Positions 60,819 through 64,000 of a DNA stretch of 64,000 bases are shown piece by piece. The position numbers were made by a program, and so were the translations under genes. Under the pieces are notes generated by a model, which was given only the letters and a program-made list of their open reading frames with translations, was not told where the DNA came from and did no database searches. Each line of letters starts with the position of its first letter. The first letter of the stretch is position 1. Source of the DNA: an uncultured Candidatus Saccharibacteria bacterium. GTDB taxonomy: Bacteria > Patescibacteriota > Minisyncoccia > Phycocordibacterales > UBA918. The DNA lies in contig CAZBMV010000001.1 in NCBI GenBank assembly GCA_964493145.1, positions 169,812 to 233,811 of the forward strand, given 5' to 3'.

Positions 60819-61354
60819 ACGTATGTATTGTGCGCTTCTGAAAACCGCTCCGCAATGAGTGCGTGTGCATAGAAACCAAGAGAACCCGCACACGTGCGGG
60901 TTCTCTTGTGGTTTGGCGGTGAGTGTATCACCTTTGCGCGAACCCACTTCGCACGCGCCGAGCGCGTGGTGGCTCGGGACTAATGCGTACGCTCCGATTG
61001 CGTGGTCTGCTCCGCCACTTCGTCCTCCAAAAACTCCGAAAGGTCGCAAAGTATCTATTGCTCCCAATCTCCGCTTTCTCCGTCCTTGTGGCGGCCCGAG
61101 GCGCTCCCGTAGCGAACCTGCGTGGTATCTATAGCGTCCGCTCACACTTCGCCGCGCCTCGCACTGGCCGCTCACATTCGTTCGCGATGCCTGCTCGGTG
61201 CGGCTTCGTGTTCGCTCGGCGACTTCGGTGGAGTTCGTTGTGCCTCTAAAAGGCGGATTGTGCCAAACTCACGAATGGCACAAGCAAATCATATTGCGCT
61301 TGCCCCAAACCCTCCCATGCGCGCGCAAGCCCGTCCGCTACGCGGACGACTCCC

Positions 61355-61789
61355 TCAACAAGACATTGAGTATGTTACGTAAACAAAAAGCAACACGTAG
61401 AATCCCAGAAACAGCCATGGTAGTTTCTTTTCCACCACAGTCAATTTCGCATAAACTTTTTTGTCTTTGCCATTCTTTAGTTTCTGCCACTCGTCTGTGT
61501 AAACTTTCCACGGTAGCTTTTCTTCCATTTCGTGAATTACAGCATATTTTGCTGAATTCAAACTGCGATAATTTTTGATAATTGATGCCCATACTACGCA
61601 AAGCAGCCCACCAAAAAGAGCGATGAGTAGATGAACTGGCGAAAAATCACTTTGAGTCGCCAAAAAAGCGAAGATAATAGAGTTGGCAGACAGAAAGATT
61701 TTATTCGCACCCTCTCGTCGAGCACTGATTCTGTCGGCCATCTCTACGGCCAGCTTGTATTGCTCAAATAAAATATCCTTATCTTGCAT
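61355..61789 (-). CDS. small 2-3 TM protein, SLATT-like candidate membrane effector
   Basis: 144 aa: N-terminal helix, two adjacent TM helices, C-terminal TM; 2-nt spacing to upstream TIR-like gene. Confidence 0.5.
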   Translation of the reverse strand: MQDKDILFEQYKLAVEMADRISARREGANKIFLSANSIIFAFLATQSDFSPVHLLIALFGGLLCVVWASIIKNYRSLNSAKYAVIHEMEEKLPWKVYTDEWQKLKNGKDKKVYAKLTVVEKKLPWLFLGFYVLLFVYVTYSMSC

Positions 61790-61791
61790 GT

Positions 61792-62202
61792 TTAGTCCAA
61801 TTCACGGATTGCTGAAATGATAGGACTTGCGTTCCATCCGACTATCTTATCTGCATTATCTTTCACAACAGTTGATGTCTTCTCGCTACCCCAAGGCTGT
61901 ATAGCAAGAATCGGTTTTGGATTGGTAAAACCGCTGTTTGCCAATTGAATTTCTTTGTTTATCCATTTGCTGTATGTGGAGTAAACTCCTGCCAAGATGA
62001 CTATCACATCACAGAACTGCATGCGCTCTTTGATCGCCGCCAGTAACTCTTTGTCGGTACCAGCTTTATGAATCGGGTCGTCCTTCGGTACGGAGTAATT
62101 TCGATATGAGAAACGGGAATCACCATCAAGCATTTTAACCAACTTGTCGTATGCGTCGCCGTATGCCCATGAGTGACTGATGAAGATGTTGTAGGTTTTC
62201 AT
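61792..62202 (-). CDS. TIR-like domain protein (DUF1863 / Thoeris ThsB-like)
   Basis: MKTYNIFISHSWAYGDAYDKLVKMLD.. N-terminal FISHSW motif, flavodoxin-like alternation, 136 aa. Confidence 0.7.
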   Translation of the reverse strand: MKTYNIFISHSWAYGDAYDKLVKMLDGDSRFSYRNYSVPKDDPIHKAGTDKELLAAIKERMQFCDVIVILAGVYSTYSKWINKEIQLANSGFTNPKPILAIQPWGSEKTSTVVKDNADKIVGWNASPIISAIRELD

Positions 62203-62203
62203 A

Positions 62204-62503
62204 TTAGTTTTTGTGTTGCTCGTTAAATTTAGGGCCTTCTTTTTTAATTATCTGTTTTTCTACTTGTAGCGCCCGCGGCTTATCTTTAACTTGGGCGATT
62301 TTGAATTTGGTTCCACCAGGGATGTGGTCTTTCTTGAACTTTAGATGATCTGTAAGACGTTGTTGGACATTCCCGCGACCTGCGACACCCGTGTATAGAT
62401 TTTTTCCAGCGCCATTTGTAATTTCATACACAATCGCCTTGTTTTTTGGTACGTTTCCTACGTTGGTCTTATTGAATTTCTGAGGACGATTGAACTTTGG
62501 CAT
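62204..62503 (-). CDS. small GIY-YIG nuclease-domain protein
   Basis: start MPKFNRP; KAIVYEITNGAGKNLYTGVAGRGNVQQRLTDHLKFKK = GIY / YIG / R..H..motifs; ORF-track 5' extension not supported. Confidence 0.65.
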   Translation of the reverse strand: MPKFNRPQKFNKTNVGNVPKNKAIVYEITNGAGKNLYTGVAGRGNVQQRLTDHLKFKKDHIPGGTKFKIAQVKDKPRALQVEKQIIKKEGPKFNEQHKN

Positions 62504-62535
62504 GGTATTTATGTTAGCGAATAAATATGTGGATA

Positions 62536-62573
62536 AAGTATACTTGCTCCTGCATGATGTTTCAAGTATACTC
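62536..62573. promoter_or_regulatory. two 10-bp palindromes AAGTATACTT 28 bp apart in the divergent GIY-YIG / LexA-like promoter region (candidate operators)
   Basis: AAAGTATACTTG...CAAGTATACTCA read directly. Confidence 0.5.
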
Positions 62574-62608
62574 AAATTGTATTTGAAAGAGATTTGAAAG
62601 TCAACCAT

Positions 62609-63274
62609 ATGATAACCCCAAAACAGAAGCAAATATACGACTTCATTGTTTCGTATTCCAAAGAGCACGGTTCCTCGCCCTCTTTGGAGGAGATTGCAGG
62701 CCATTTTGACTTTCTACAATACCCGTCATCGGCGCACTACCATGTTAAGAAGCTCCAAAGTGAGGGGTATTTGGAGCGCGAATCAAACCGACCACGTTCT
62801 ATTGGTATCTACGCGGATAAAACGGTCAAGACACCGATCTTTAGGAAAACTGGAATGGACGCGGTGCGAGTCCCGGTACTCGGTGCGGCAAACGCCGGAC
62901 CAGCAACACTCTTTGCGGAAGAGAATGTAGCCGGTTACTTAAAAGTGTCTCGTAGTACGCTCAATCGCCGCGACGGCGTTTTCGCGTTGCGCGTTGAGGG
63001 CGACTCTATGAACTGTGCAAAGATTGATGGAAAGAATCTTGAAGAAGGCGACTTCGTGCTAATTGACTCAACGTACCGAACGCCAAGAAATGGAGATTAT
63101 GTGCTTTCCGTTATTGACGATTGTGCGAATCTAAAGAAATTTCAAAGAGATCCGAAGACTGGGAATGTCATGCTTGTTTCTGAATCAAAAAATCCCAAAC
63201 ATAAGCCAATATATGTTTCGAGTGATGACGATTATATGGTCAATGGAAAGATCATTAAAGTGATAAAGAAATAA
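62609..63274 (+). CDS. LexA-family repressor (winged-HTH + S24 self-cleaving peptidase domain)
   Basis: N-terminal wHTH (..SLEEIAGHF..); Ala-Gly cleavage-site region (VLGAANAGPATLF), catalytic GDSM serine and downstream Lys (LKKF). Confidence 0.8.
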   Translation: MITPKQKQIYDFIVSYSKEHGSSPSLEEIAGHFDFLQYPSSAHYHVKKLQSEGYLERESNRPRSIGIYADKTVKTPIFRKTGMDAVRVPVLGAANAGPATLFAEENVAGYLKVSRSTLNRRDGVFALRVEGDSMNCAKIDGKNLEEGDFVLIDSTYRTPRNGDYVLSVIDDCANLKKFQRDPKTGNVMLVSESKNPKHKPIYVSSDDDYMVNGKIIKVIKK

Positions 63275-63288
63275 TGTATAATAAAATT

Positions 63289-64000
63289 ATGGGCAAGAAC
63301 AATTTTTCAATAAATACCATCTTGCACGGTGATGCTGTGGAGATGATGAAAAAAATTCCAGACAATTCTGTTGATTTGGTGGTAACTTCACCTCCATATG
63401 ATACCCTCAGGAATTATACAGGGGACCTTACATTCGATCTGCATGAGACAGGTGTTCAAATTAAGAGAATTTTGAAAGACGGGGGCATCGCTGCTGTGGT
63501 TATACAAGATCAAACTAAAGATTTTGCAAAATCGCTAACCTCATTCCGAATGATTGTCGATTGGGTTGATAATGTTGGTTTACGTCTTTTTGAAAATGTC
63601 ATTTATCGCAAACATGGTACAGAGGGTGCTTGGTGGACGAAGCGTTTCCGTGTAGACCACGAATACATGCCAATTTTCCTAAAAGGTGCACGTCCTCAAT
63701 ATTTTGACAAAGAACCACTGAAAATACCCTCCAAGCATGGAGGAAAGGTTATGACAGGAAGCGGTAATAGAAGGACGGACGGGACGACCACAAAGACAAT
63801 TACCAGACCAATAAACGCCATGAAGTGCCGAGGAACAGTTTGGGATTATTTAATGGCGGGAGATAAAGATCCGCTCAAGCGACAACATCCGGCAGTCTTT
63901 CCAGATAAAATACCGTATGATTTTATTCAGTGTTTTTGTCCTCCAGATGGTGTCGTATTAGATCCGTTTGGTGGTTGTGGTTCTACTGCTGTTGCAGCAA
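63289..64000 (+). CDS. DNA methyltransferase, beta-class N6-adenine/N4-cytosine (partial, runs off window end)
   Basis: VVTSPPYDT (motif IV) precedes LDPFGGCGST (motif I) = beta-class amino-MTase order; no stop before 64000. Confidence 0.8.
   Translation, partial: MGKNNFSINTILHGDAVEMMKKIPDNSVDLVVTSPPYDTLRNYTGDLTFDLHETGVQIKRILKDGGIAAVVIQDQTKDFAKSLTSFRMIVDWVDNVGLRLFENVIYRKHGTEGAWWTKRFRVDHEYMPIFLKGARPQYFDKEPLKIPSKHGGKVMTGSGNRRTDGTTTKTITRPINAMKCRGTVWDYLMAGDKDPLKRQHPAVFPDKIPYDFIQCFCPPDGVVLDPFGGCGSTAVAA

Follow-up and report, generated by a model that had tools for sequence, protein, structure and literature searches.

A TIR gene and an 8xMP membrane protein gene form a putative Thoeris-type pair beside lexA in a Candidatus Saccharibacteria contig

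The described systems closest to the locus reported here are Thoeris systems in which a TIR protein is paired with a small membrane protein. A preprint by Yirmiya et al. (December 2025) lists in its Table S1 about 100 TIRs with a putative associated effector termed "3TM" and groups them in one TIR cluster with the validated ThsB proteins of types IV (E. coli 328), VII (SLATT) and VIII (CMP hydrolase); one TIR clade combined with alternative effectors is its signature for defining new Thoeris types (bioRxiv 10.64898/2025.12.03.692087). Here we analyze a locus at the end of a 64,000-nt stretch of contig CAZBMV010000001.1 from an uncultured Candidatus Saccharibacteria bacterium, in which genes for a TIR protein, a membrane protein and a GIY-YIG nuclease are divergent from lexA. 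The whole 64-kb stretch is called the window, and L001 to L202 are loci or contigs of relatives. Like the "TIR + 3TM" configuration, the window has a TIR-only ThsB (cluster 2734565194) beside a small protein with three transmembrane (TM) segments (Fig. 1C of the preprint); unlike the window, the preprint describes no coupling to lexA, GIY-YIG or restriction-modification (RM) genes (bioRxiv 10.64898/2025.12.03.692087).

We think it probable that the locus is one arm of a lexA-centered defense island, and that its core is a two-gene Thoeris-type signaling module made up of a ThsB-like TIR and a three-TM effector of the 8xMP family. The TIR gene (61792-62202, minus strand; 136 aa) is predicted to encode a TIR-only protein of the ThsB type, which we propose senses the phage and makes an NAD-derived signal. 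It is followed, after 2 nt (61789/61792), by the 8xMP gene (61355-61789, minus strand; 144 aa), whose three-TM product of family PF24838 is the proposed effector of the pair. The GIY-YIG gene, 1 nt upstream of the TIR gene (62202/62204), comes first in the transcription unit and encodes a small basic nuclease. Its open frame spans 62204-62704 on the minus strand, and the 99-aa version at 62204-62503 starts at an internal ATG. An earlier sequence-only reading of this DNA had reported a tightly packed three-gene cassette in a defense-type locus. Its coordinates and 1- to 2-nt packing agree exactly with the open reading frames (ORFs), and the defense character is borne out by the ThsB-like TIR, the small multi-TM partner, the divergent true LexA and an RM-type methyltransferase (MTase). 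Four of its five domain calls (GIY-YIG, TIR, LexA/S24 and beta-class SPPY methyltransferase) are upheld by Pfam, NCBIfam and PADLOC.

The TIR protein matches Pfam ThsB_TIR (PF08937) with 51.8 bits against a cut-off of 21.2 (E = 1.2e-13; Pfam and NCBIfam assignments throughout were scored against curated cut-offs) and the PADLOC ThsB model with E = 1.1e-11. Its predicted catalytic glutamate, E84 within KWINKEI, aligns with E79 of PsTIR and with the glutamate of BcThsB; mutation of PsTIR E79 to glutamine abolishes type IV Thoeris defense. Identity is 52% to the ThsB of E. coli 328, which is the validated type IV protein, 42% to the type VII protein and 34% to that of type VIII. Most of the 13 TIRs of the "3TM" class that were compared are 40-67% identical to the window TIR, and one is 33% identical. 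The protein also matches a phage family of unassigned function, phrog_6988 (PHROG 6988; E = 1.2e-33), which is consistent with carriage on prophages.

The 144-aa protein is a full-length member of PF24838 (8xMP, the octameric membrane protein family); its match spans positions 1-135 of the 136-position profile and scores 129.9 bits against a cut-off of 30 (E = 7.3e-38). The family has 4,253 cluster representatives at 50% identity, and some of the 602 homologues of the window protein bear the NCBI name "RipA family octameric membrane protein." A cytoplasmic N-terminal motif, EQYKLAVEMADRISARRxxAN, is conserved; in our alignment of the family (A1), the invariant residues are Y11, K12, E16, M17, A18, D19, R20, S22, R24, R25 and N29 in the N-terminal region and W67, Y74, L77, N78 and K81 past the second helix. 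AlphaFold2 (AF2) gave a poor model from the single sequence (predicted local distance difference test [pLDDT] score of 61), so the alignment-based monomer model was used instead (pLDDT 82.9). It places helices at residues 3-45, 51-90, 98-103 and 110-143 and confidently predicts a helical hairpin. A hydropathy scan shows two strong hydrophobic segments and a weaker one at about residues 30-46. Together, the long modeled helices and the hydrophobic segments agree with the membrane character proposed earlier.

The name SLATT-like, which the sequence-only reading had given this protein, does not hold. None of the SLATT profiles (PF18181, PF18183, PF18184, PF18186 and PF18160) matches it at E ≤ 1 in Pfam, and none does in PADLOC. 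In addition, hhalign of A1 against the SLATT_1/DUF4231 protein of a related TIR locus, a single-sequence template that leaves a very remote relationship conceivable, returns a probability of 0.6%. We therefore rejected a SLATT identity in favor of PF24838 membership; at most, "SLATT-like" describes an analogous role. The Pfam search likewise gave no DUF2270 match. No solved relative was found in the Protein Data Bank by sequence, with either the protein or the A1 profile as query, or by fold, and a literature search for octameric 8xMP/RipA membrane proteins turned up nothing relevant. Homologues of the 8xMP protein also occur on 13 viral or prophage contigs of IMG/VR (L171-L183).

The association between TIR and 8xMP extends far beyond the window. 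In Niyogibacteria contigs and one Rhodothermales genome (L001-L005, with L001 from Niyogibacteria and L005 from Rhodothermales), a ThsB_TIR gene is directly followed by the gene for a close homologue of the window 8xMP protein. A genome scan for the 8xMP family yielded at least 590 loci; the best 78 distinct ones were taken, and 71 had enough upstream sequence to judge. Hidden Markov model (HMM) searches placed a TIR next to 8xMP in 38 of the 71, comprising 11 TIRs of the window clade and 27 more distant ThsB_TIR proteins, and Pfam matches at L045 and L064 raise the count to about 40. These loci are spread over many bacterial phyla and three archaeal metagenome-assembled genomes (MAGs; L034, L053 and L077). 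A survey from the TIR side, covering the best 80 metagenomic relatives of the window TIR, found 8xMP as the adjacent partner in 36 and a caspase-like protein, the type IV Thoeris layout, in 30. Rarer partners were SLATT_1/DUF4231 and ApeA-HEPN (one each), and several loci had additional TIRs. Effectors are therefore swapped within this TIR clade, and gene neighborhoods predict the two-gene pair of TIR and 8xMP to be the conserved functional unit. Two co-directional operons stand out among these loci: L095 (2025-5404) encodes a LexA-like protein, a 123-aa TIR-like protein, a caspase C14, a TIR and 8xMP, with a ParB-MTase gene divergent from it, and L102 (2956-4963) encodes a LexA-like protein, DUF2188, a TIR and 8xMP.

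Some 8xMP loci without a TIR neighbor have other upstream partners, including caspase-like C14 proteins (L017, L078 and L085), pentapeptide-repeat proteins (L036 and L068), a radical SAM protein (L024) and a patatin (L056). Caspase-like C14 and long pentapeptide-repeat proteins recur among them, suggesting that the 8xMP family serves several systems.

Among validated systems, type IV Thoeris, which combines a TIR with a caspase-like protease and N7-cADPR, has the ThsB closest to the window TIR, with the same catalytic glutamate. Its caspase partner is the one shared by 30 of the 80 nearest TIR relatives, and L095 has both caspase and 8xMP. The type IV effector is a protease, whereas that of the window is a membrane protein. 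The functional logic that we propose for 8xMP is instead that of type V (ThsF, DUF2270, three TM segments) and type VII (ThsH, SLATT). ThsF and ThsH are small oligomeric membrane effectors predicted to bind cyclic ADP-ribose (cADPR) isomers in positively charged pockets and to breach the membrane (bioRxiv 10.64898/2025.12.03.692087). They belong to different families from 8xMP, as the missing DUF2270 and SLATT matches and the hhalign result indicate. Based on its sequence relationships, the TIR-8xMP pair is best filed as a predicted member of the Thoeris configuration of a TIR with a three-TM effector, not as a new three-gene system. The earlier claim that the combination is not a described system therefore stands only in part: TIR with "3TM" is already listed as putative Thoeris, and the class is only predicted there (bioRxiv 10.64898/2025.12.03.692087).

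A mechanism can be proposed by analogy. As in Thoeris types IV, V and VII, the TIR protein would sense phage infection and, via E84, would turn NAD+ into a cyclic-ADPR-type signal. By analogy with ThsF and ThsH, the signal may bind to an oligomeric ring of 8xMP at its conserved cytoplasmic face, which is rich in Arg and Lys (K12, R20, R24, R25 and K81). The ring would then open or disrupt the membrane and stop growth before phage maturation. The GIY-YIG gene would merely be co-transcribed with the pair. We infer the signal and the gating of the effector, as well as the binding of LexA considered below. If the pair does defend its host, the Thoeris effector repertoire would be extended by a membrane-protein family that is very large, so far unassigned and named for a virulence factor of Francisella, and RipA-like proteins would gain a functional hypothesis.

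The GIY-YIG protein matches its Pfam family with 32.9 bits against a cut-off of 22.6 (E = 8.3e-8) and is strongly basic, with 22 K+R against 7 D+E in 99 aa. Its family is narrow, with 51 clusters and lengths of 97-111 aa. A rival model built on the sequence-only reading holds that GIY-YIG, TIR and membrane protein form an obligatory three-component system, in which a signal would activate both the nuclease and a SLATT-type pore under CapH/CapP-like LexA control. The spacing of 1-2 nt speaks for this, and so does the recurrence of the trio in at least nine further contigs (L007, L086, L088-L090, L092, L094, L096 and L162), two of which (L094 and L096) have no adjacent lexA. The gene is nevertheless separable from the pair. 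In L199-L201, GIY-YIG members at 80% identity are divergent from lexA without TIR-8xMP and are followed by unrelated genes, namely a 229-aa protein without annotation and a NUDIX protein in L199 and L200 and small ORFs in L201. Conversely, TIR-8xMP lacks GIY-YIG in L001 (Niyogibacteria), L006, L114, L005 (Rhodothermales) and every non-Patescibacteria locus. Moreover, 99 aa leave the protein no space for a signal-sensing domain, and the proposed pore has no SLATT match. We consider an obligatory trio very unlikely: the cassette does recur, but not as one system.

Because it accompanies lexA without TIR-8xMP in L199-L201 and is missing from most TIR-8xMP loci, the GIY-YIG gene appears to belong to the lexA locus and not to the core of the TIR system. 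It could be an SOS-type nuclease or contribute to cassette turnover. A tblastn search of L001 and L006 for GIY-YIG remnants found none. The corresponding position holds a short, extremely basic ORF of about 49 aa in L001 (7400-7550) and an extremely basic ORF of about 78 aa in L006 (2700-2940), whose HH...H pattern recalls a mini-HNH. Another GIY-YIG member, in L202, has mobile-element-like surroundings.

The less expected part of the locus is its lexA context, in which exchangeable modules occupy a new regulatory and genomic setting. The lexA gene (62609-63274, plus strand; alternative start 62594) encodes a helix-turn-helix (HTH) domain and an S24 autopeptidase. Its product scores 115.8 bits against TIGR00498 (equivalog cut-off 110.95) and, in Pfam, 44.0 bits for LexA_DNA_bind and 73.4 bits for Peptidase_S24. 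The predicted autocleavage features can be read in the sequence: the Ala-Gly site in ANAGPA, the serine in GDSM and the lysine in NLKKF. The next gene (63274-64000, plus strand), whose frame runs off the window end, encodes a beta-class N4/N6 DNA methyltransferase. It matches Pfam N6_N4_Mtase (PF01555; 79.8 bits against a cut-off of 26.7, E = 3.8e-22) and the PADLOC models for type II and orphan MTases (E of about 1e-29), with the motif IV SPPY near the N terminus and FGGCGS near the cut end. The lexA stop codon and the methyltransferase ATG overlap (TAATG), and translational coupling of lexA to this methyltransferase, of an RM module, is therefore predicted. In relatives, the lexA-linked MTase adjoins a restriction endonuclease (REase) and a C protein, or an HNH or Bsp6I-like REase.

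In other Patescibacteria, LexA (HTH and S24) is fused in a single ORF to three unrelated MTase classes. Minus-strand fusions were found to a C5 MTase (L006:1017-2591), to a beta N6_N4 MTase (L007:897-2258), to an N6_N4 MTase (L114:2472-3815) and to a gamma N6_Mtase with TaqI_C (L088:1177-3681 and L092:1176-3680), with an HNH or Bsp6I-like REase adjoining the fusions. MTase domains occur in about 10 of the 120 best LexA homologues. Elsewhere, lexA is followed by Vsr-Dcm (L001). LexA-like genes stand beside TIR-8xMP in three arrangements: that of the window, the divergent fusions of L006, L007, L088 and L114, and the co-directional order of L095 and L102. In type II RM MTases with an N-terminal HTH (M.SsoII-type) and in C-protein control, a DNA-binding repressor domain is likewise joined to or co-transcribed with the MTase; here it is a complete self-cleaving LexA (HTH and S24), on three MTase classes. 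The literature searched yielded no account of LexA-MTase fusions or of defense slots anchored at lexA. The existence of such fusions suggests that methylation and the damage caused by self-restriction are linked by a feedback. In another Patescibacteria lineage (L184-L190), lexA (5001-5594 in L184) is followed after 14 nt by a DpnI-type methyl-directed REase, a DpnII fragment and RhuM.

To compare the slot divergent from lexA, we used contigs encoding a LexA of the same 90% cluster as the window LexA (at least 90% identity). The genes on both sides of lexA differ among them. In the window, the slot holds GIY-YIG, TIR and 8xMP, with the beta-class MTase, cut by the window end, downstream of lexA. 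L169 and L170 (L169:713-6504) have a patatin, a SMODS CD-NTase (CBASS) and a 235-aa protein in the slot and a C5 methylase, a SacI-like REase and a C protein downstream. L166 and L167 (L166:6374-10908) have a metallo-beta-lactamase (MBL)-fold protein and a 161-aa protein in the slot and a different C5 methylase, an REase and a C protein downstream. By contrast, a block of roughly 85 nt, reaching from TGTGGATAA to the lexA ATG, is kept in the window, L166 and L169, and the first start codon of each cassette lies 5-24 nt beyond it. Cassettes are thus swapped at the lexA slot behind a common promoter region, as if various cassettes were plugged into one expression site overlapping the lexA control region. 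This layout of fixed promoter and swappable cassette offers a search handle for new Patescibacteria defense genes, such as those for the unannotated 229-aa, 161-aa and 235-aa slot proteins.

Two tandem sigma-70-like promoters on the minus strand, each with 10 of 12 matches in a promoter scan, read into GIY-YIG, TIR and 8xMP and are the only good outward ones in the block. The first, TTGACT-17-TACAAT (62604..62576), is kept in L166 and L169. The -10 element of the second, TTGAAA-17-TATACT (62565..62537), is kept in L169 (AGTATACT) and lost in L166 (ATAGTAAT). A candidate operator, the direct repeat TTTGAAAG-N3-TTTGAAAG at positions 62582-62600, falls within the spacer of promoter 1 and within the lexA leader and is conserved with this LexA type (L166 and L169). 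As operators, we rejected the perfect palindrome TCAAAT-N3-ATTTGA and the AGTATACT palindromes, because they either lack conservation in L166 and L169 or simply represent -10 boxes. Where the conserved lexA regulatory block meets the variable cassette lies a junction motif, TTATCCACA (TTATCCCCA; 62528-62536, minus strand), that is identical to the DnaA-box consensus. In the form TTATCCMCA, it is present in the window, L007, L086, L088-L092, L001, L006, L166, L169 and L199 and missing where lexA is not adjacent (L094 and L096). Operator, recombination junction and DnaA site are all conceivable roles for it; two copies occur in the 64-kb window, which is not significant alone.

Because the promoters lie within the conserved lexA regulatory region, LexA would repress all three genes and DNA damage would induce them. 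Control of the cassette by LexA is plausible, judging from this geometry and the repeated linkage. As in the CapH/CapP and BrxR/WYL systems, a repressor gene stands beside the defense genes, and derepression upon damage or infection is the proposed logic. Those regulators are an HTH and metallopeptidase pair or a WYL protein, whereas that of the window is a LexA with a serine S24 peptidase. No metallopeptidase gene (CapP) was found in 61000-64000, where LexA is the only regulator. The CapH/CapP analogy drawn earlier is accordingly sound in its logic but not in its components. The lexA context provides a testable case of SOS-wired immunity in bacteria of the candidate phyla radiation (CPR), in which defense regulation is essentially unknown.

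Several points weigh against the combined picture of a Thoeris-type pair under LexA. The "3TM" class lies outside the 30 operons assayed in the preprint, leaving defense by TIR-8xMP a prediction, and the text and tables contain no RipA, 8xMP or PF24838, with the effector family unnamed (bioRxiv 10.64898/2025.12.03.692087). We infer that the "3TM" effector is 8xMP by elimination, from TIR similarity and helix count, because 8xMP is the only three-helix membrane neighbor seen in the TIR clade. 8xMP lacks a recognized nucleotide-binding domain, and about 31 of the 71 8xMP loci have no adjacent TIR and have other partners or none. Francisella RipA, an inner-membrane protein of about 18 kDa known for intracellular growth and a link to LpxA, shares the curated family PF24838 and the NCBI family name with the window protein, a likeness by family membership only; its phenotype is envelope/LpxA-related, not defensive, and a TIR partner is not reported. 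On the regulatory side, the association with lexA is limited to Patescibacteria relatives, and TIR relatives at about 60% identity occur without lexA. The candidate direct repeat occurs once in 64 kb, with no regulon to check it against, and a search of the lexA region for a palindromic LexA box yielded no conserved one that could be assigned.

Some of these observations would also fit a locus without signaling immunity, in which the TIR is an NAD+-depleting or otherwise toxic effector tethered or regulated by 8xMP, or in which the pair acts as an SOS-induced module for growth arrest or lysis, similar to yneA. 8xMP has no known ligand-binding domain, its family is also found without TIR, and the promoters overlap the lexA control region. 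In addition, a position divergent from lexA is the classical site of Gram-positive SOS cell-division inhibitors; in B. subtilis, the division inhibitor gene yneA is divergent from lexA. The tested members of the TIR clade (types IV, VII and VIII), on the other hand, make signals and do not deplete NAD+. The CBASS genes in the same slot of a sister genome point to phage defense, and the swapping of caspase and 8xMP effectors within one TIR clade fits a diffusible signal. Taken together, a toxic or growth-arrest function without signaling seems unlikely, and we continue to favor the Thoeris-type module.

The borders of the island bear on whether lexA controls these cassettes or merely adjoins them. 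A stretch of about 330 nt beyond the 8xMP gene (about 60913-61241, minus strand), the distal flank of the island, is homologous to an inverted-repeat arm of relatives; blastn aligns it with L169/L170 at 78% identity across 247 nt and with L166/L167 at 82% across 91 nt. Its core is a GC-rich hairpin element, CCACGCGC-TCG-GCGCGTG, at 60931-61006 (nhmmer core match, E = 5.7e-22). The arm homologue lies at the outer cassette edge in L169 and L166 and recurs, inverted, beyond the RM module. The two arms of L169 (123-369 and 6563-6809) are 247 nt long and 100% complementary; those of L166 (5882-6092 and 10916-11129) are about 210 nt long, and their inner 100 nt match at 99%. In two sister genomes, the whole lexA island thus lies between long terminal inverted repeats. 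The arms have internal hairpins and resemble miniature inverted-repeat transposable elements. The window holds the left arm only, and any right arm would fall past 64000. No long inverted repeats were found around other Patescibacteria lexA islands.

These repeats are compatible with two further readings. In one, lexA is a mere neighbor, sitting in the conserved flank of a recombination hotspot and regulating neither the TIR cassette nor the MTase. The long inverted repeats that bound the island in L166 and L169 suit such a hotspot, as do the different cassettes in genomes with the same LexA, a lexA locus without any defense genes (L191-L198) and the lack of a demonstrated LexA box. Every slot cassette, though, starts 5-24 nt past a conserved lexA block that holds the only good outward promoters, and lexA is coupled or fused to three unrelated MTase classes. 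LexA-like genes also precede TIR-8xMP co-directionally (L095 and L102), and position alone hardly accounts for a linkage that recurs independently. We regard mere adjacency as possible but doubtful. In the other reading, which we put forward just as tentatively, lexA is the hub of an inverted-repeat-bounded defense island in this Patescibacteria lineage, where one SOS repressor would drive a fixed bidirectional promoter block. On one side, the repressor would share translation with, or be covalently joined to, the MTase of an interchangeable RM module; on the other, it would control an interchangeable abortive-infection cassette, which is the Thoeris-like TIR-8xMP in the window and CBASS or an MBL-fold pair in sister genomes. 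If so, when phage attack or self-restriction damages the DNA, protective methylation would increase and the suicide module would be armed simultaneously, and the 210- to 250-nt terminal inverted repeats would make the unit invertible or mobilizable.

The nearest homologues of every gene are from MAGs of Saccharibacteria, Niyogibacteria, Parcubacteria or Pacebacteria, so that the host genome is, on sequence similarity, predicted to belong to the Patescibacteria (CPR), in line with the CPR-like genome proposed by the sequence-only reading. Over the region, the GC content drops from about 0.52-0.54 to 0.40-0.47. Searches of the island border found no tRNA, tmRNA or Rfam element. A 32-nt near-perfect palindrome, AGAGAACCCGCACGTGTGCGGGTTCTCT, lies immediately beyond the arm, at 60877-60908, with leader-like Rfam matches that are all below threshold.

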